A DNA stretch of 23,290 nucleotides from an uncultured delta proteobacterium (GTDB lineage: Bacteria > Desulfobacterota > Syntrophia > Syntrophales > UBA2185): assembly GCA_963729715.1 (NCBI GenBank), contig CAVSPA010000001.1:1-23290 (forward strand), read 5' to 3'. The notes beneath the pieces were generated by a model. It saw nothing but the letters and a program-made list of their open reading frames with translations, did not search any database and was not told the origin of the DNA. Positions within the stretch are counted from its first letter, which is position 1; every line of letters starts with the position of its first letter. Shown here in pieces: positions 14,070 to 23,290 of this stretch. The position numbers and the translations under genes are program-made.

Positions 14070-15128
14070 ATGCTTACGGACTACCTGCAAACTTCAGGTG
14101 CCTATGCGATTCCCCCGATTCTCGGCTTTCTTGTTCTCATATCTCTCACCTTGATTTCCCTTCTGAGGGGCGGGAAGAATCCCGCAAATAAGCTGTTTGC
14201 CGGTATCTGTCTTACAGGCGCGTTGGTCAATGCCGACATGGTACTGGTTTCAACCATTCCGGATAAGAACCTCACCCTCACTGTAGACAGGGTACTCGAT
14301 TTCTTCTTTGTCCTTGCCTTACCCGTCTATATCCAATTCATTCGTTCCTCGGCATATCGGGCCGGAGATGGTTTGTATATGCTTCCTTTCTCATCAGTTT
14401 CGTTTTCATCTTTTTTACCCCATCAGATCTTTTTATCAGCGGATTTCAGCATTACAATTTTGGAGTGATCGGCTCACGAACTTAACAACCCTCTGGCAAG
14501 TGCGTCAAGTCTCATTCAGGCTAGTGTCGAATCAGTTGGTGAGTGGGATGTCAAAGACGGAAACAGGGATGAGGTTATACAGGATCTCGCATTCTCAATA
14601 AGCGAGTTAAAGAGGGCCGGCGACATTGTGCGGAGCCTTGTGGATCTTTCACGCCAGACCCAGGTCTACGCAGAACCTGTTAACATGAATCTTGCAATCG
14701 ATGACGCGCTCAGGGTTCTGTATAATCTGTATAAACATCTGCAGATTGAAATTGAAAAAAAATAGGACAACGACCTGCCCGTAGTAGAAGGTAATTCTGC
14801 CAATCTGGGTCAGGTGTTTATGAATGTGATCAAGAATGCTGTTGAGGCGATGGGCACAGGGCATGGGAAGATCACCTTGGTGACAGAGTATAAGAAGGAG
14901 ACGGACAGTGTATTGATCGAATGCAGGGATACCGGCAAGGGGATCACGGACGATCAAATGAAAAACATATTCGACCCCTTTTAGACGACCAAGCCGGTTG
15001 GTAAGGGAACGGGACTGGGCCTTTATATTTCTCATGAGATTGTGAGATGGGCAGGCGGGACTATCTCCGTGAAAAGCGAGGAGGGCAAAGGGTCTGTCTT
15101 TTCGATAGAGCTCCCGTGCAAGCGGTGA
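14070..15128 (+). pseudogene. Decayed membrane sensor histidine kinase (TM N-terminus + HisKA + HATPase_c)
   Basis: TM N-terminus frameshifts near 14340 (the other frame continues FLGISGRRWFVY...YNFGVIG) and joins abruptly to AHELNNPL at 14472. QVFMNVIKNA, DTGKGI, IFDPF*TTK and GTGLGL follow, with in-frame TAG at 14763 and 14982 and final TGA at 15126-15128. Confidence 0.88.
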
Positions 15129-15214
15129 GATACACGAAAAATACCGAAAAATACCTTGACAAAGGGGAGGTGTTGGTTTACAAAGCTACACTAATTTGTC
15201 AAGAATCGAGATGA

Positions 15215-15291
<77 letters not shown>

Positions 15292-15300
15292 AGAGATTAC

Positions 15301-15371
15301 AAGGGGTTAGCTGATACGGCTAATCCCTTTTCTGCATTTTGGAGGGGTTTTTCTAACGGATTTCTAACGGA
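15301..15371 (+). other. att-junction-like region: hairpin plus tandem 11-bp direct repeat
   Basis: AAGGGGTTAGC/GCTAATCCCTT hairpin (15301-15329) and TTTCTAACGGA x2 (15350-15371) directly after the tRNA 3' end. Confidence 0.6.
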
Positions 15372-15521
15372 GTAAAGAACCCCGTGCTTCCGCACGGGGC
15401 ATTAAAACTCAAAATCTAACTGCTTGGGAGCTTTTCTTCATGCTTATGATACTCAATTCCTAAAGAGCGGAAACCCTTTCCTCCCCGTGCTTCCGCACGG
15501 GGTATCCAGGGTTTGATTTTC
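15372..15521. mobile_element. 150-bp non-autonomous IS200/IS605-superfamily (ISC/PATE-like) mini-element
   Basis: Two identical subterminal hairpins CCCCGTGCTTCCGCACGGGG (15380-15399, 15483-15502). Ends GTAAAGAACCCC... and ...TTCCTCCCC-hairpin-TATCC..., followed by ATGAA. No target duplication and no ORF. Confidence 0.75.
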
Positions 15522-15744
15522 ATGAAAAGTTTCCTGCAAAAGGTCAACCTGTTGCCGATTTTAAACCTCGTCGTTGAATAGAGGTCCGTAAGTGTCCATT
15601 GTAATCTTTATACTCGAGCCATTATATTTTTACGTTGTTTCAATAGAGAGGAGATTTGAGTTCAGAGTATCGTATGCAGGTAAGAGACAATTTGAACTTG
15701 TGGAAGATCTAATACCCTTTATGTGAAACAATCAGTCTTTTCCC

Positions 15745-15858
15745 GGACAGTCAGTTCCTCTCCGGGACTTTAAGTTATCTGCTTCTCTTGTCATCATTTG
15801 CTTCTTCCTTGTTAAGCGTCCGGCGATTTTGACTGGCATACTTTCTTTCAAACGGAAA
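15745..15858. repeat. Diverged island repeat, copy A
   Basis: Shares GGACAGTCA, CTCTCCGG, CTGCTTCT and CATTTGCTTCTTCCTTGT with copy B; TTTCAAACGGAAA resembles TTTCAATCGGTAA of copy C. Confidence 0.7.
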
Positions 15859-16272
15859 TCCTTATTGACTGTACTCTTGCTTTTCTGATTCAGCCCTCCA
15901 TACAACATTTCACCTTGCAAGTGCAAACTGATTCCCATTTGAGAAGGTTTATGATACCATACGAGTTATTGAACAAAGCAGTGGGAAGAGGATCTACTCT
16001 ACAAACCATGCTCATGGGCATTAGGTGAAACACAGATTAACTCCTCCCATTTTACCCCAGTTTCCCAGCTGGTACTTTATAACATTCATTAAGCCATAAG
16101 AACACAAGGTGGTGTCAATAACCGGCGCATTTCATTTTTTATTGCTCGCTCTTGAGCATAACGGGATGAAAGGTGCTACATAGACTAACTGAGCGTGAAT
16201 CGTATTTTTCGATAAATGCAAGGAGTGAACGGTCAGATAATGGTCTCTAGACCGGAAATAAGGAGATAGCTG

Positions 16273-17352
16273 ATGTCGGAAACTGGAAAAGGGGTAAAAG
16301 AGTTGTTCGAGGAAGTGATAAATCAGGGCCTGTGCACCGGATGCGGTGCCTGCATTACAGGTTGCCCATACTTGGTTGATCATGAGGGGAGAATCGTCTT
16401 GATGGACAAATGCACCGGCGGTAACGGGGATTGTTATAAGCACTGTCCGAGGACATTTCTCGATAGGGATGCAATAAGTAGGATAGTCTTTGGGAGTTCC
16501 TATGACGATGGTGAAATAGGCCAGTTTCTTGAAATCTTTATGGCTCGATCTAAGGATCCGGAAATTAGGAAAAGAGGGCAGGATGGGGGTACCGTTACGG
16601 GCCTTCTGGTCATGGCGATGGAAGAGGGCCTAATTGATGTTGTGGCTTGTGCGCGGATGAATGAGGAAAAAGTGCCGCGGGGTTATCTTGCGCGCAGCCG
16701 TTCGGAACTGCTCCATTGTGCCGGTTCGAGTTATGAAGCTTGCCTTGCCCTGCAAGCCTACCGCAGCCTTCCCAAGGACGACCTCGAAAAAATAGCGATC
16801 GTCGGCAGAGGTTGTCAAATTGAGGCCGTGGGGAAGATGAAGCAAATCCCGCCTAAAAACAGCCCCGATCCCAGGAATATTAAGTTGAGTTTGGGACTGA
16901 TATGCGGCTGGGCTCTTTCCCAGAGCGCCTTTCATCCTTACCTGAAAGGAATCTGTGAACTTTCAAATGTCAGCAAATTCGACATCCCTCACACGCCTCA
17001 CTATTCCTTTGATGTATACTTCAATAATCATCCTGATACCATGTCACTCCCCCTTGATAAAATTAAACCCTTTATCAATCCGGCCTGTTGGTTTTGTTGG
17101 GATATGACTGCTGAATTTTCAGATATTTCCGTTGGTTCAGCAGGCGCCGAATTTCCGGGATGGAATACCGTCATCGTTCGCAGCCATGTTGGGTCCGAAC
17201 TTGTCCTCTTGGCAAACAGGAAAGGAATTTTGGAGACTCGATCTTTACCGAATCACAGATTGGAAAACCTCAAAAAGGCCGCGCTCAAGAGAAAGAATGC
17301 GGCGTATGAAAATATTGTGCAAAAGACGGGGAATGACGAGGGTCTGTTATAA
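16273..17352 (+). CDS. Coenzyme F420 hydrogenase/dehydrogenase beta-subunit (FrhB/FdhB-like) FeS flavoprotein with N-terminal ferredoxin domain
   Basis: CTGCGACITGCP, GQDGG.VT, GSSY, VG.GCQ, GLICGW and CWFCWDMTAEFSDISVG motifs; AAGGAG RBS. Confidence 0.87.
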   Translation: MSETGKGVKELFEEVINQGLCTGCGACITGCPYLVDHEGRIVLMDKCTGGNGDCYKHCPRTFLDRDAISRIVFGSSYDDGEIGQFLEIFMARSKDPEIRKRGQDGGTVTGLLVMAMEEGLIDVVACARMNEEKVPRGYLARSRSELLHCAGSSYEACLALQAYRSLPKDDLEKIAIVGRGCQIEAVGKMKQIPPKNSPDPRNIKLSLGLICGWALSQSAFHPYLKGICELSNVSKFDIPHTPHYSFDVYFNNHPDTMSLPLDKIKPFINPACWFCWDMTAEFSDISVGSAGAEFPGWNTVIVRSHVGSELVLLANRKGILETRSLPNHRLENLKKAALKRKNAAYENIVQKTGNDEGLL

Positions 17353-17435
17353 TTGAGAACCCTGCCTGGCTATATTGCCGAGAGGCATTCAGGTAAAAAT
17401 GAATAATGGAACATCTATATGCAGGGAGGTAGCGA

Positions 17436-19376
17436 ATGGCGAGTATTGGATTGGATAAATCTGGAACTGAGGTGCTTTTAATGGGCAATGAGGCTGTGGC
17501 GAGAGGGGTGATCGAAGCTGGCGTGGGGGTTGCGTCTGCCTATCCCGGAAGTCCGACTTCTGAAGTGATCCCGGCTATCGCGGAAGTCGCCAAAGAAAGA
17601 AATATTTATGTCGAGTGGTCTACAAATGAGAAGGTAGCTCTCGAAGTGGCTGCTGGAGCCTCATTTGCGGGAATCCGCGGCTTTTCGGTTATGAAACAAA
17701 ATGGGGCCAATGTTGCAGCGGATTTTCTGGTAAATCTGAATATGACCGGCATCGGCAGCGCGGGGCTGGTCATTTTTATTTCTGATGATCCCGGCGGGGG
17801 AACCAGTAACAACGAAGAGGATTCCAGGACTGTGGCAAAATGGCTTGATAATCCCTTGATGGAGCCGAGCAGCGCCCAAGAAGCCAAGGAAATGATCAAA
17901 TGGGCATATGAGGTTTCGGAGGCAGTAAATCTTGTGACCTTTGTTCGCGGCGTAGGCCGGATTTCTTATACCCGGAGTAATGTCATGCTGAACGAGCTGC
18001 CCGACAAGAATAAACCAAAGCCTTTTTTCCCCGAGATCTGGGATATGAATAATCCCCGGAAAAGCAGATTCACCTCTGGTCCATTTCCGATTTTTCACAA
18101 ACCCCTCCACGAAAAGTTGGAGAAGGCGCGGACAATTTTTGAGACCTCTTCCTTCAACCGATACCTGGGACCGGAGAAACCTGAACTGTTAATAATCACC
18201 TGTGGCGCTTGCACTTCCTATTGCATTGAAGCCATGGAAGAATTGAAATTGAACGAGGAGATTGGAATCTTAAAGTTGGGGACCACTTGGCCTCTTCCGG
18301 AAAAACTAGTGGCTCGCCATCTGATCTCCGCAAGAAAAATACTCTTCGTCGAAGAGATGGATCCCTTCGTGGAACAAAGCGTGATGGAATTGGCCGCCAG
18401 TCTGCTTCCGGCAACGGCAAAACTCAGCTTCTTCGGCGCCCGCTCGGGGCACATCACCCCTTACAATGAACTGAGCACTGACATCGTCATCGATGCCTTG
18501 TCGGATATCCTGAATGTGGCTAATCGGGGACGGGACATCGCCTATGAGAATCTATCCAGGGAAGCGGCGAAACTAGTGCCACACCGTCCCATCAACATGT
18601 GCCCGGGTTGCCCACATCGGGCGACTTTTTGGGCATTAAAGCAGGCCATTACACTGGACGGCCGCAACGGTTTTCTCTGTGGCGATGTGGGTTGTTACTC
18701 GATGGGATTTTCTGAACCGGGCTTCTTTCAATCACGTACGATGCATGCGATGGGTTCGGGTGCGGGAGTGGCCAGCGGCATGGGCAAACTGAAGCAATTC
18801 GGCTTTGATCAACCCGTGCTTGCGATATGCGGCGATTCCACTTTTTTCCATGCCGCTATGCCGGCTTTGGTCAACGGCGTTTACAATAATTCAGACTTCA
18901 CGCTACTTGTCGTTGACAACAGCGCTACGGCCATGACTGGTTTTCAGCCTCATCCGGGAACGGGACAACTGGCAACCGGCGATCCGGCGACTGTGGTTAG
19001 CATAGAAGCTGTATGCAAGGCGATGGGGGCGTTTGTTGAAGTATGTGATCCCTTTGACTTGCACAAGACGACCGATGCCTTGTTGAAGATGATGAAGAAG
19101 GAGGGTGGCACAAAGGTCATCGTCATGCGCCACATGTGCCAATTAGTGAAAGATAAAAGAAGAATTGCTCGAGAATATAAGATGCACGTGGATCCATCAA
19201 GATGCTTGGCGGACAACTGCGGCTGCAATCGGCTCTGCACGCGACTCTTCGGATGTTCCGGACTGATGGTGGATAATGAAAGCGGCAAGGCGGTTATAGA
19301 CGAGGCGCTTTGTGCCGGATGCGGGCTGTGTTCGAGCATTTGCCCGGCGAATGCAATAATCAAGGAGGCCAACTGA
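17436..19376 (+). CDS. iorA: Indolepyruvate:ferredoxin oxidoreductase-family alpha subunit
   Basis: LMGNEAVARG, YPGSP.SE, WSTNEKVALE, MCPGCPHR, GDVGCY, GDSTFFH, TAMTG.QPHPG and C-terminal CAGCGLC...CP. Confidence 0.93.
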   Translation: MASIGLDKSGTEVLLMGNEAVARGVIEAGVGVASAYPGSPTSEVIPAIAEVAKERNIYVEWSTNEKVALEVAAGASFAGIRGFSVMKQNGANVAADFLVNLNMTGIGSAGLVIFISDDPGGGTSNNEEDSRTVAKWLDNPLMEPSSAQEAKEMIKWAYEVSEAVNLVTFVRGVGRISYTRSNVMLNELPDKNKPKPFFPEIWDMNNPRKSRFTSGPFPIFHKPLHEKLEKARTIFETSSFNRYLGPEKPELLIITCGACTSYCIEAMEELKLNEEIGILKLGTTWPLPEKLVARHLISARKILFVEEMDPFVEQSVMELAASLLPATAKLSFFGARSGHITPYNELSTDIVIDALSDILNVANRGRDIAYENLSREAAKLVPHRPINMCPGCPHRATFWALKQAITLDGRNGFLCGDVGCYSMGFSEPGFFQSRTMHAMGSGAGVASGMGKLKQFGFDQPVLAICGDSTFFHAAMPALVNGVYNNSDFTLLVVDNSATAMTGFQPHPGTGQLATGDPATVVSIEAVCKAMGAFVEVCDPFDLHKTTDALLKMMKKEGGTKVIVMRHMCQLVKDKRRIAREYKMHVDPSRCLADNCGCNRLCTRLFGCSGLMVDNESGKAVIDEALCAGCGLCSSICPANAIIKEAN

Positions 19377-19987
19377 TGAGGAATGGGAAACTGAAAAAGG
19401 ATCCGTATAATGTGATTATCTCTGGGGTTGGCGGGCAGGGTAATGTTTTGCTTTCCGGATTTATCGGTACGGCATTGTTAAACGAGGGTTTTATCGTCAG
19501 CGTAGCGGACACCTTTGGCGTCAGTCAGCGAGGAGGATCTGTATCAAGCCACATCAAAATCTCAGAAAAAACCTTGTACAGTTCGGTTACACTTAAGGGT
19601 AAAGCCGATGTAATTATTGGAATGGAACCTGTCGAGACCTTGAGAACCTTGGTTTATTTCGGCAACCCTGCCGTGATAACGATCGTAAACCCCAGACCGT
19701 TCTACCCTTCCGGCGGCGTGGAATATCCGGATCTGAGCGAGGTGCGACAAACCATTGAGAAGATGTCTTCAAAAACTCAATATGTGCAAGCGACTGAGGA
19801 AGCCTTAAGAATGGGGAATCCGATATATACGAATATTATCTTGTTGGGTGCTGTCGTGGGATCGGGCGTCTTACCCCTCAGCAGAGAGTCAATGATTCCT
19901 CTTCTTGAAGAACGCTTCCCAGATAAAGTATTAGATCTTAATGTCAATGCATTCAACAAAGGGATGGCGCTCATCGCCGAGACCTGA
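19376..19987 (+). CDS. iorB: Indolepyruvate:ferredoxin oxidoreductase-family beta subunit
   Basis: TGATG overlap with iorA; GVGGQG, GVSQRGGSV.SH, N...LGA and N..AF..G motifs. Confidence 0.92.
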   Translation: MRNGKLKKDPYNVIISGVGGQGNVLLSGFIGTALLNEGFIVSVADTFGVSQRGGSVSSHIKISEKTLYSSVTLKGKADVIIGMEPVETLRTLVYFGNPAVITIVNPRPFYPSGGVEYPDLSEVRQTIEKMSSKTQYVQATEEALRMGNPIYTNIILLGAVVGSGVLPLSRESMIPLLEERFPDKVLDLNVNAFNKGMALIAET

Positions 19988-19988
19988 T

Positions 19989-20072
19989 TTGCAGTGCGGA
20001 AACATTATATGCAGAGTTGGCCAAGATGGAGCAGGTGCGGTCACGATAGACCGTCCAGAGAAACATCTGTAG
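19989..20072 (+). pseudogene. Possible N-terminal fragment of an enoyl-CoA hydratase/crotonase-family gene
   Basis: LQCGNIICRVGQDGAGAVTIDRPEKHL* resembles crotonase N-termini (I.Y.V.DGVA.ITLNRPEK); only 27 codons. Confidence 0.35.
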
Positions 20073-20102
20073 GAGCGTTCGTATAACGAAAAGGAGAAGG
20101 GC

Positions 20103-20294
20103 ATTGGTGCTGATCTGTTCGCAAGGCTGTTCTCCCTTCAGGGGAAAACTGCCCTGATTAGCGGGGGATACAAGGGCATCGGCCGTCTGTTTGCCGAGAC
20201 TTGCGCCGAGGCGGGGGCCGATGTGGCCATCGTCTCCTGGAATCAGGAAGGGTGCACATGCGCCGTCGAGGAGATTTTCGGGAGGTTCGGGGTG
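20103..20294 (+). pseudogene. Truncated short-chain dehydrogenase/reductase (SDR) N-terminus
   Basis: AAGGAG RBS, ATT in place of a start codon, then LFSLQGKTALISGGYKGIGRLFAE..AEAGADVAIVS (Rossmann GxxxGIG). Homology ends at an IS-like terminus. Confidence 0.8.
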
Positions 20295-20324
20295 ACCTGC
20301 CCCTCTAAAACTGGTCCAGTTTTT
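20293..20324. mobile_element. Solitary IS3-family-like terminal inverted repeat
   Basis: TGACCTGCCCCTCTAAAACTGGTCCAGTTTTT begins where the SDR homology stops; no partner end or transposase seen. Confidence 0.5.
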
Positions 20325-20349
20325 AATATGTAAAAATCGACCTCTTCCT

Positions 20350-20462
20350 GGACAGTCATCATCTCTCCGGTAAGGGAATTTATGCTGCTTCTTTTGTCAG
20401 CATTTGCTTCTTCCTTGTAATGTTGTTTTTCTTATTCTATTTGCTTGCACAACATTTCAATC
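20350..20462. repeat. Diverged island repeat, copy B
   Basis: About 70 bp closely similar to copy A; CTTCCTTGT...CATTTCAATC shared with copy C. Confidence 0.7.
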
Positions 20463-20541
20463 TATAATAATCAAAAAACCCTGAGAACTCTCATTTAAAA
20501 TATGGTACACGATGTTAGGACTAAAGCATCATTAGGAGGTT

Positions 20542-21240
20542 ATGCATATGAATATGAAAGTAATTAGAAGGAATCTTTTACGAGTAACAGCCATCGGTTT
20601 TATCTTGGTTTTTTTAATTGCCATTGTGCCTTCGACCCAGAATACGGCTTTCGGAGAAGAACAAAAACCAATCCAACTTTCAAAGCCCCAAATCGCCGGC
20701 AATCCTTTGATGCAGCTTTTGGCAAAGAGAAGTTCCTCACGCGAATTCAGTTCAGAACCATTACCGGTGAAAATTCTTTCAAATATGCTCTGGGCAGCAT
20801 CCGGAATCAATCGTCCGGAGTCTGGCAAACGGACTGCACCTACTGCGATCAATCGGCAAGAGATCGACATATATGTTGCAACTGCTGCTGGCCTTTACCT
20901 CTATGATGCAAAATCGAACTTTTTGAAACCGATACTGGCAGGAGATATTAGAGGAGTGACCGGTACTCAGGGATATGTAAAGGACGCTGCTGTGAACCTT
21001 ATTTATGTGGCGGATTATTCCAAGATGAGTTCATCGTCAGATGAGGCTAAAATCATGTATGCAGCGGCTGACACGGGATTCATAAGCGAAAATGTTTATC
21101 TTTATTGTGCCTCCGAAGGATTATCAACGGTCGTACGCGCGGCGATAGATAGGCCTGCCCTCGCAAAAGCCATGGGCTTACGACCGGATCAGAGGATCAT
21201 TCTGGCGCAATCGGTCGGATACCCCAAGAAACAGAAATGA
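20542..21240 (+). CDS. Nitroreductase-family (SagB/ThcOx-like) flavoprotein with signal peptide
   Basis: RSSSREF, LWAA.GINR...KRTAPTA.N, D.GFISENVYL.CASEGL and GYP motifs; AGGAGG RBS; hydrophobic leader. Confidence 0.9.
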   Translation: MHMNMKVIRRNLLRVTAIGFILVFLIAIVPSTQNTAFGEEQKPIQLSKPQIAGNPLMQLLAKRSSSREFSSEPLPVKILSNMLWAASGINRPESGKRTAPTAINRQEIDIYVATAAGLYLYDAKSNFLKPILAGDIRGVTGTQGYVKDAAVNLIYVADYSKMSSSSDEAKIMYAAADTGFISENVYLYCASEGLSTVVRAAIDRPALAKAMGLRPDQRIILAQSVGYPKKQK

Positions 21241-21401
21241 TGGGGGTAAGATGGACAGACGTGTCAATATGTAAATCGGGGTCTATCGGTAAGCGCATAA
21301 AACATAGTCAGTTTACTAGGGAGAAGGGAATGAAAAGACTCCCTTTCTCACCGTAATTCACAACGTTTTATAGAATGGTATATGCAATAGTTGTCAGTGG
21401 A

Positions 21402-21517
21402 GACAGCAGTTCTATCCGGTTGGACGATCTTGAAAATCGTATATTGGATTTTTTGTTTAGTAGCTTCCTTGTTGTTTTTTTGAATTTCCATTCTTGATGC
21501 AGCATTTCAATCGGTAA
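21402..21517. repeat. Diverged island repeat, copy C (also the 5' exon/target of the intron)
   Basis: GACGATCTTGAAAA and ATTGGATTTTTTGTTTAGT are identical to copy D; GACAG-CAGTTC..TCCGG resembles copy A. Confidence 0.7.
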
Positions 21518-22140
21518 GTGTGCCACGAGGCTGCACAAGAGATGAGGGGAGGTCCCTCGAAGTCGGCTTGCAGGAGCGGGCTTCAAACCACCTTAAGCTG
21601 CGATGGTAAAGAGCCATGGTGGTGAGCGGTAAGGAAAAGGCAGGGCATGACCCTGTCAGGTGAGGTTCAGGGAGGCGAGCGCAAGCGAACTACTTCTGAG
21701 GTGTCGAAATGAAATGGATGATGTCAGAACTGGGGGGCTTACTGATCTCCAGGATAAGTCCAGGAGGGACCTGTTTACTGCCTGGGCGGCATCCGGCATA
21801 AAGGTAGCGCGAACCTGATTCAGGCTCTTGTGTGGAACGTGGGAACCTGTCGTCCCGATGATAAGGGAGAAATTCAAGTGGAGGAAACCACAAGAATGAG
21901 AGTACCGATGCGGGGCACGGGGGCGGACCAACTCGTATTAGTGTGGAAGTTCCTGTAATGGGAATGGAGCGAAGGGGTTGGATCATCTGATCTTATTGTT
22001 TGGTCAACCAGAGATGGGAGGAGCCAGGGAATAAGATAAGACCGCTGGGTTAGCCTGGCGGCTGGATGATAAGAGCCGGATGACGGGAGACTGTCACGTC
22101 CGGATCCGTGGGACCGTGGGGGTGCGCCGCGCCACCCAAC
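21518..22140 (+). ncRNA. ORF-less group II intron (IIB, resembling bacterial class D / RmInt1-like)
   Basis: 5' GTGTG; domain V GAGCCGGATGACGGGAGACTGTCACGTCCGGATC (22073-22106) with AGC triad; 3' end ...CCACCCAAC. EBS1 TTACTGA (21739-21745) pairs with exon TCGGTAA and EBS2 TGAAATG (21710-21716) pairs with exon CATTTCA. No RT ORF. Confidence 0.92.
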
Positions 22141-22417
22141 TCTTTTAACACGCATGTTATGGATTCCATTGACATAGTACAAATGGAATTTTCCTATATT
22201 TCATCCGTCAGGAAGTAATGTCTTATAAAAAAAATTATTATAAAGGTTAAATTCAATTGGCATAAAAATGGCTGTGAATTGGGAGGAAATAGCGCCCATT
22301 ACTCTTCCATTTAATAGTTACCGCTTTTCCACATGTAACACGCCTATCTTATAAGTAAGAAACCTATTGTTTATGCGCTGTCCTTGAGCACGATACTTGA
22401 AAATATGGAGGTGTACG

Positions 22418-22795
22418 ATGAAGCGACGAGTGAGTCCCTCGATTCCTTCATGGAAGGCAGTTTTAATCTTATCGATTCTTTGCTGTCTTTGTCCTCAGAT
22501 GTCTTTGGCAACATCGCCACAGGACATGAAACTTGAATATGATGCAAGCACGCAAATGCTGACAGTCACGATCACACACCCGTCTTCTTTTCCCAATTAT
22601 CACTACATAAAATATGTTGAAATCAAGAAGAACGGAGTCGATGTGATGAAGAACACTTATAAAAATCAACCTGACCAAGCAACATTTACATACACATATA
22701 AGGTGCCCGCTGCTGAGTATGAAGAGCTGGAGGTGACAGCCACGTGTAGCTGGTACGGATACAAGACGGTAAATCTGACTGTCCGCAAGAAGTAG
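22418..22795 (+). CDS. Small secreted protein with superoxide-reductase/desulfoferrodoxin-like motifs
   Basis: GGAGG RBS, signal peptide, ITHP.....HYIKYVEI and ATCSWYG (compare SOR HP....HYI.WI and YCNLHG). Confidence 0.7.
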   Translation: MKRRVSPSIPSWKAVLILSILCCLCPQMSLATSPQDMKLEYDASTQMLTVTITHPSSFPNYHYIKYVEIKKNGVDVMKNTYKNQPDQATFTYTYKVPAAEYEELEVTATCSWYGYKTVNLTVRKK

Positions 22796-22917
22796 TCTGG
22801 ACATTCAGGTCTGCCTGCAGAAGCGAGACCAAAGTCCTACGAAGGGTCAGGGATTAAGCTGAAAGCTAACAGCATACAGCCAATGGGGAAATAAGCACTT
22901 GAACCCTAAGTGAAGCC

Positions 22918-23027
22918 TGCAATTCCGCCGGATTGACGATCTTGAAAAAGCAACAATTGGATTTTTTGTTTAGTCCTTCCTCTGAAATGTAGAATCCGAT
23001 AATTTTGCTGAGTATCCACCATTTCAA
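22918..23027. repeat. Diverged island repeat, copy D
   Basis: CCGG, GACGATCTTGAAAA (22935-22948), ATTGGATTTTTTGTTTAGT (22956-22974), CTTCCT and CATTTCAA (23020-23027) are colinear with copy C. Confidence 0.7.
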
Positions 23028-23290
23028 GTGATAGACAGTATCTAATGGCTGATATTTACTTGACCTACACGTACGTTGCTGCTTATGCTCCCTCCTTCAA
23101 ATGCAACGCCTTATCAAAAAACAGCTTTGGGACGGTACCCGTTCTTAGAAACGCCAGTTAAAAATAATCATTCCTGGTGCCAACCCGTTAGGAAAGTCGG
23201 TGAACCATTGATTTTCGGGAATAATATTTATAACTCCGATTTGAACCCCGCCTGATGCCTTAGCGGCATAATTGACTGCGCCTAACTTAC

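Follow-up and report, generated by a model that had tools for sequence, protein, structure and literature searches.

What are the four diverged, co-oriented repeats of about 110 bp (copies A–D, starting near positions 15745, 20350, 21402 and 22918) in this 23,290-nucleotide stretch of DNA from an uncultured Syntrophales bacterium? The stretch, termed the window in the following, is the entire contig C1 of a 3.76-Mb host genome (G000). The four copies and their three colinear sequence blocks were found where the initial annotation of the window had placed them. They are very probably recombination junctions. The most probable full reading, to which we assign a probability of roughly 60%, is that they are junctions between gene modules, i.e. 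double-stranded sites of site-specific recombination on which a dedicated 279-amino-acid (aa) tyrosine recombinase (P0001 family) acts. Judged from sequence, P0001 is the likely recombining enzyme. The repeats belong to a large, apparently undescribed family of junctions at which anaerobic bacteria of the Syntrophales type exchanged neighboring gene blocks; neither the sites nor this recombinase family were found described in the open-access literature searched.

The uniform 110-bp repeat proposed initially was not borne out. In comparisons with 1000 dinucleotide shuffles, full-copy similarity was significant for the pairs A-B, C-D, and B-C (p = 0.001 each), whereas it was not for A-D (p = 0.81), B-D (p = 0.22), and A-C (p = 0.051). 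When the copies were split at the CTTCC core, the left halves paired as A/B and C/D (p = 0.001 each, shuffle test), which retains the kinship noted earlier for this part of the repeat; the right halves of B and C formed a group (p = 0.001), whereas those of A and B were unrelated (p = 0.88). This difference in grouping between the two halves identifies the copies as mosaics joined between CTTCC and TG, which have a spaced two-box motif in common. Each repeat is a junction composed of a left half (family A/B or C/D), a core Y (CTTCCTG), and a box X (TTTCAAnnGGTAAT) about 44 bp further on. On the plus strand of the window, left half, core Y and box X lie at 15722–15803, 15804–15811 and 15846–15859 in copy A (the left half being an A/B-family spacer that ends at the core, the putative crossover point), at 20323–20409, 20410–20417 and 20455–20468 in copy B (A/B family), at 21400–21463, 21464–21471 and 21505–21517 in copy C (C/D family), and at 22913–22975, 22976–22984 and 23022–23035 in copy D (C/D family). 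Box X of copy C is split by an ORF (open reading frame)-less group II intron (21518–22140, plus strand) and resumes at 22141.

The least decayed and most uniform sites were those of the related genome G045, in which a complete junction runs from an X through 33 nt to W, then via a variable spacer to Y and through 39 nt to a second X. Intact copies also hold a mirror-image site, X followed by a second core W (GTAGGTG); read on the opposite strand, W-X mirrors Y-X, the inner arm of W resembles that of Y, and X lies on the same side. The distance between core and box is fixed, X following Y at 44 bp and W following X at 48 to 49 bp. Of 709 distinct X contexts, a set that takes in loci chosen by the motif, 230 had CTTCCTG exactly at −44, and 125 had GTAGGTG at +48 to +50. 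Less common cores took the same positions: 10 contexts have GTATTTG at +49 and four have TTTATTG at −44. A further one, CTACTTA, was found in three Nitrospiraceae loci. The two site types tend to alternate: among 360 neighboring pairs within 5 kb, 229 changed the type (XW-YX 121, YX-XW 108), 97 repeated it (YX-YX 80, XW-XW 17), and 34 lay on opposite strands. Modules running from Y to W carry the cargo and have a median length of 1.6 kb (n = 117); those from W to Y are mostly short (80 of 123 under 200 bp), the others holding the recombinase gene and sometimes different cargo. The left block of the initial annotation corresponds to this W-to-Y spacer, with a recognizable W upstream in 6 of 13 distinct C/D-family loci and in just 1 of 13 distinct A/B-family loci (counted by locus). 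In the window, a degenerate W precedes copy C (21391–21399, paired with a box X at 21344–21357) and copy D (22905–22912), all on the plus strand.

Comparison of related sequences placed the breakpoints at both cores. The set analyzed comprised 278 sequences (5.3 Mb), the pairs of which are kin and hence not independent. Pairs sharing the DNA upstream of Y ended at +1 to +6 of Y in 46 of 63 cases, and pairs sharing the downstream DNA started at −17 to −5 of Y in 28 of 43. At X-W sites, downstream-shared pairs started at +40 to +50, i.e. at W, in 32 of 43 cases, and upstream-shared pairs ended at +55 to +58, again at W, in 9 of 22. As shared flanks break at both cores, Y and W look like crossover points of alternating modules. 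The same pattern was found at the window's own repeats. In G008, homology to the nitroreductase block starts exactly at 20410 in the core of copy B, and in G004 the block following copy D is shared from 22972 onward with 96% identity, the upstream DNA being unrelated in both cases; in G003, the FrhB-iorAB block (96%) directly follows an intact X-W, and G010 homology to the last cargo gene stops at 22907 within W. In contigs from two of four sequencing runs, 22979 was joined to 15804, and 22981 was joined to 21476; the intron-free allele was also present. The left half of D met the right half of A at the core in contigs from two studies. These joins, and the blocks that begin at the B and D cores in relatives, support one of the three options offered in the initial annotation, namely junction sites of a cassette system not described before.

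The repeats are not confined to the tRNA-anchored island, as matches were found across G000. Four rounds of iterated nhmmer gave 67 matches with E < 0.01 versus none in the reversed genome, and a matrix scan identified 70 Y-X and 35 X-W sites. Neighboring Y-X sites closer than 6 kb were more frequent than expected (24 pairs versus 7.2), and 22 of the 24 were co-oriented. Only 3 of 46 site clusters lay within 3 kb of a tRNA gene compared with 5.1% of random points, so a tRNA-targeting integrative element was rejected. The proposed link to the remnant of a phage-type integrase next to the tRNA was likewise not supported, the remnant being unrelated to P0001. A sequence-only model detected sites in 77 of the 101 genomes examined from the order, with at least 150 in G045 and 50 in G005; none of the six genomes from one family had any. 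In the phylum, 20 of 150 genomes gave matches. At least 122 metagenome stretches matched the exact pattern, whereas no viral contig and no entry of the phage and plasmid collections did. In 79 metagenome loci analyzed, 103 of 104 model matches shared the strand of the seeding match.

The candidate enzyme was found among 26 PF00589 matches in G000: three near-identical genes encoding the 279-aa P0001 are located on contigs C4, C10, and C13, inside arrays, and no copy is present in the window. P0001 scored above the PF00589 cut-off, which assigns it to the tyrosine recombinase superfamily, and the catalytic set R142, K165, H224, R227, H251, and Y260 was invariant or nearly so in 24 sequences. 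It remained below every NCBIfam cut-off, the nearest family being archaeal XerA (119.7 bits versus a cut-off of 220; PDB 5hxy, E = 2.4e-16). At E ≤ 1e-30, the homologs comprised 84 cluster representatives. Their loci were scanned with matrices trained solely on G045, a genome without the gene, at a threshold of the 99th null percentile. Of 61 homolog loci, 31 had X-W upstream, in most cases between −160 and −186, and in none was it preceded by Y; Y was found downstream of 21 of 70 loci, mostly at +104 to +110, with X-W in between in none. In 28 of 74 loci, a reversed X lay just past the stop codon. The gene-site layout was seen again in another order (G175). Within the order, sites were present in 20 of 21 genomes with the gene (some copies broken) and in 57 of 80 without it; in the phylum sample, four of eight homolog-bearing genomes had sites.

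Integron integrases were rejected as the driver of the system: they scored above cut-off in three of the five site-rich genomes, not beside sites, and none was found in G000. Assignment of P0001 to IntDes was discarded because it has 279 aa and an intact HxxR motif; the available text of PMC8138268 describes this subgroup by an arm-binding domain, a shifted first Arg, a His replaced by Tyr, and a restriction to Desulfovibrio.

Several side observations were made at the recombinase loci. A 13-bp inverted repeat flanks the recombinase gene on both sides (L019:9190–10110 and homolog loci), its left copy directly following a −10-like box; it could pair the 5′ end of the mRNA with its 3′ end, or represent a further crossover. 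Small genes resembling toxin-antitoxin systems, named by eye, directly follow all three G000 copies (L019:10230–10978, L015:15977–16482, L021:11936–12244). In G045, a 200-aa tyrosine recombinase consisting of the catalytic domain only, 27% like P0001, is encoded in two copies antisense inside arrays (L254:5780–6382, L305:4121–4723).

Background knowledge and these data can be combined to a working model. Tyrosine recombinases need identity across a 6- to 8-bp overlap; together with what is known of dif modules (PMC13141974, PMC9455709, PMC10132070), this predicts the observed picture of invariant cores, crossovers only between like cores, and movement of modules in pairs or by double crossover. 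Recombination at the repeats would need identical cores, Y with Y and W with W. Because of this demand, a pair of modules would be cut out as a circle and inserted anew at a different core of the same type; alternatively, one module would be exchanged via two crossovers. Box X, with its fixed spacing and partial match to the integration host factor (IHF) consensus, would serve as an accessory protein-binding site, either for the recombinase or for an IHF/HU-like protein. HU/IHF-like genes, named by eye, were themselves a repeated cargo in at least five G045 modules (L247, L248, L249, L254, L259) and may relate to box X. A direct role of X as a homology-dependent crossover was rejected, since paired X spacers were no more alike than expected by chance (p = 0.17 and 0.80). 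Genomes without a P0001 gene would hold orphan arrays.

A number of findings weigh against this model. Four genomes of the phylum contain homologs with 42 to 51% identity and no sites detectable by this model, and, conversely, no P0001-family gene was identified by profile in the site-rich genomes G045, G005, G109, G023, and G244. Contig ends in G045 interrupt multi-copy elements, so that the gene may have been lost from that assembly. A homolog was present in just 2 of 79 motif-selected metagenome loci. W-to-Y intervals hold ordinary cargo too, so the position of the gene alone does not prove catalysis by P0001. The arms beside the cores are weakly conserved. The contig joins represent arrangements of relatives and are no proof of circles. 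Three further nitroreductase homologs either lack an intact Y at the corresponding distance or have a different right half. The cargo boundaries expected to coincide with the repeats in relatives did so in part: some blocks start at cores, whereas 3′ ends often lie off the repeats, as seen for the nitroreductase and iorB homologies. Finally, at one orthologous intergenic position, the interval of G003 and G007 is empty and has no sites, whereas G000, G008, and G009 have site-bearing arrays there, which differ among the three.

One alternative explanation keeps the sites and module logic and assigns catalysis to the host XerC/XerD with an accessory factor at X, P0001 being a passenger that favors W-to-Y intervals. 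We consider this unlikely, if the strongest of the alternatives. XerC/D-like genes were the sole tyrosine recombinases common to all five site-rich genomes examined, G005 has nothing more than these and one fragment, and the alternation of sites resembles that of XerCD dif modules, as far as these are covered by the available text of PMC13141974. When compared with the host dif arms, however, Y, W, and X scored no higher than shuffles did (mean 10.0 versus 9.95 of 22; 1 of 404 Y reaching 15), which eliminated dif likeness; the cores have 7 bp versus 6 bp in dif spacers, one whole family of the order is site-free, and X boxes hug the P0001 gene itself. The chromosomal dif of the host was found once in G000 (C4, minus strand, near 260900), 24 of 28 positions being identical to the Syntrophus aciditrophicus site given in the available part of PMC2731167.

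The site-free orthologous intervals fit a second explanation, in which X-W-Y-X is a small mobile element, non-autonomous and derived by deletion from the recombinase element, that inserts beside genes, the shuffling at cores being secondary and due to homologous recombination or IS110. Further points for it are the recombinase gene inside the X-W…Y-X frame, the terminators or attC-like hairpins that often precede left X boxes, and the insertion of IS110 at CT of Y. Left and right halves are unlinked, though, right halves travel with downstream cargo, and the lack of similarity between the two X spacers of a junction also speaks against it. As a full account it is rather improbable; it may explain the founding step alongside recombination between modules at like cores.

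Dispersed minus-strand promoters with small RNAs, another option of the initial annotation, and binding sites of a global regulator are very improbable explanations. The sites are intergenic, X contains TTGAAA on the minus strand, and seven of nine IHF consensus positions matched in 228 of 398 cases versus 116 in shuffles. A −10 box (TAnnnT, 16 to 18 nt after TTGAAA) was, on the other hand, rarer than chance (3 of 257 sites versus 18.8 expected), which ruled out a sigma-70 promoter, and breakpoints at cores are not predicted by this explanation. Rfam searches of the window returned tRNA and intron families and a below-threshold OmrA-B match, none on the repeats. An attC-like hairpin was rejected for lack of base-pair covariation (420 complementary cells versus 431.5 in shuffles, 78 non-redundant sites), and six-frame translations gave no shared frame that would identify the repeats as protein-coding ends.

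The third option, decayed ends of one known insertion sequence (IS) family, is hardly tenable: 10 of the 23 G000 domains assigned to IS110 have an X box at a distance of up to 2 kb, versus 11.7% of random points, but IS110 interrupts the sites, just one of the 115 flanking ORFs scanned encoded a transposase (116 were called, of which a duplicate was removed; the others diverse or unknown), and the sites are co-oriented and do not form inverted terminal pairs. The splitting of sites by IS110 and the lack of a shared transposase family also excluded IS or MITE (miniature inverted-repeat transposable element) ends in general. A search of G000 for IS91-family transposases gave no match, the control being equally without one.

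IS110 elements split Y at CT, with CT duplicated, and therefore target it. Four G045 contigs open with the same IS end, each fused to a different right half. In the intron family of the window, five of six copies, read by eye, are inserted just after GTAA of box X; a relative of intact length is located at C3:370029 of G000. IS110 elements and the group II intron are parasites of the sites, and the possession of such parasites is a sign of an old and abundant target. Integron sites are likewise targeted by IS110 and group II introns.

To our knowledge, integrons and the dif modules of Acinetobacter (pdif) are the only well-known tyrosine-recombinase systems that move single-gene blocks. According to the available text of PMC13141974, dif modules have alternating inverted sites, two module types, crossovers at matching spacers, and either pair excision or double-crossover exchange. 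The system described here shares with them alternating, inversely oriented sites (the 229 of 360 pairs) with two module types, crossovers at like cores (breakpoints piling up at Y and W), toxin-antitoxin and metabolic cargo, and sites hunted by IS elements (the last going by the accessible part of PMC10132070). It differs by lacking 28-bp dif-like sites of the 11-6-11 type, by fixed 7-bp cores with an accessory box 44 to 49 bp away, and by its chromosomal location, tens to more than 150 copies, and a dedicated recombinase gene within the frame. With integrons and with attC-site clusters that have no integron integrase (CALINs; the comparison for enzyme-less arrays, as presented in the available text of PMC4889954), it shares co-oriented arrays of units of one to three genes, diverse cargo, and arrays without an enzyme. 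In contrast to integrons, there is no hairpin covariation, and attC cores (RYYYAAC…GTTRRRY), already noted as missing from the four copies, were found in 0 of 414 Y-X repeats; P0001 scored 63.2 bits versus the IntI cut-off of 265 and has no insertion relative to XerA, whereas IntI has an extra domain of about 35 residues; and genes of the cargo frequently possess a promoter region of their own or are reversed in orientation. Separately, attC-like hairpins that end right at the start of the left-hand X box (L019, L093, L107, L249, L258) suggest that integron cassettes are among the cargo.

The lambda att site, for which the accessible part of PMC7581858 gives a 7-bp overlap with inverted arms and IHF sites, also has a 7-bp core, but P0001, with 279 aa, lacks an arm-binding domain, and many dispersed sites replace one attP/attB pair. 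Archaeal XerA is the best family and structure match to P0001, which differs in scoring below the family cut-off and in being patchy, multi-copy, and additional to XerC/XerD. Accessory boxes for a small recombinase are found in TnpI/IRS. Unlike lambda and TnpI, the system was not found in the phage or plasmid collections searched.

The sites thus work in a dif-like manner but failed the dif site test and all integron tests, which leaves an even chance of a separate, third natural cassette system apart from integrons and XerCD dif modules. Such a system would combine a mobile XerA-like recombinase with incompatible 7-bp cores and an accessory box, by which Desulfobacterota and some of the Nitrospirota would carry out natural recombinase-mediated cassette exchange at chromosomal sites numbering tens to hundreds; GTATTTG, TTTATTG, and CTACTTA would be further orthogonal cores. 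If separate, it would reshuffle a large part of the accessory genome in syntrophic bacteria and account for much of the accessory-gene turnover in these organisms, which are central to methanogenic ecosystems. It would also supply a rule, based on sequence, by which mobile modules can be marked in hundreds of genomes, together with a small recombinase whose naturally orthogonal cores are accessible to plasmid tests.

The remaining parts of the window, on the plus strand unless stated otherwise, surround and fill the modules. Most of the cargo named initially was confirmed by Pfam: an FrhB/FdhB-family gene (16273–17352), an IorA-like 2-oxoacid:ferredoxin oxidoreductase alpha subunit (17436–19376), and an IorB-like POR subunit (19376–19987) follow copy A, and a nitroreductase-family gene (20542–21240) follows copy B. 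The intron behind copy C was also found, whereas the gene termed SOR-like (22418–22795) had no Pfam or NCBIfam match; it encodes a hypothetical 125-aa protein, the sole and weak lead for which is desulfoferrodoxin (Atlas, 0.90). Directly after copy A lies a fifth, partial right half (15870–15914), the X box of which is interrupted by a non-coding element of about 200 bp (15912–16116; 83 to 93% identity in several genomes of the genus, no Rfam match). A degenerate W (16103–16111) and a box X on the minus strand (16158–16171) precede the FrhB-like gene, at the place where the same cargo comes after the intact X-W in G003.

Upstream of copy A, the tRNA-Met(CAT) gene (15215–15291) is a neighbor that the system does not need, and the integrase remnant (15522–15617, minus strand) is the C-terminal tip of an enzyme of which G008 retains a longer version at the corresponding place. 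Between them, a 156-bp MITE (15362–15526) with the same hairpin at both ends occurs in at least eight copies of 98 to 99% identity in G000 and is missing from the corresponding spot in G008. A sensor kinase gene (14070–15129) has an internal deletion of about 1.15 kb relative to several relatives and an in-frame stop. Ahead of copy B, a short-chain dehydrogenase fragment (20090–20320) ends at an IS-like end, and a similar end lies ahead of A/B-family left halves in two relatives.

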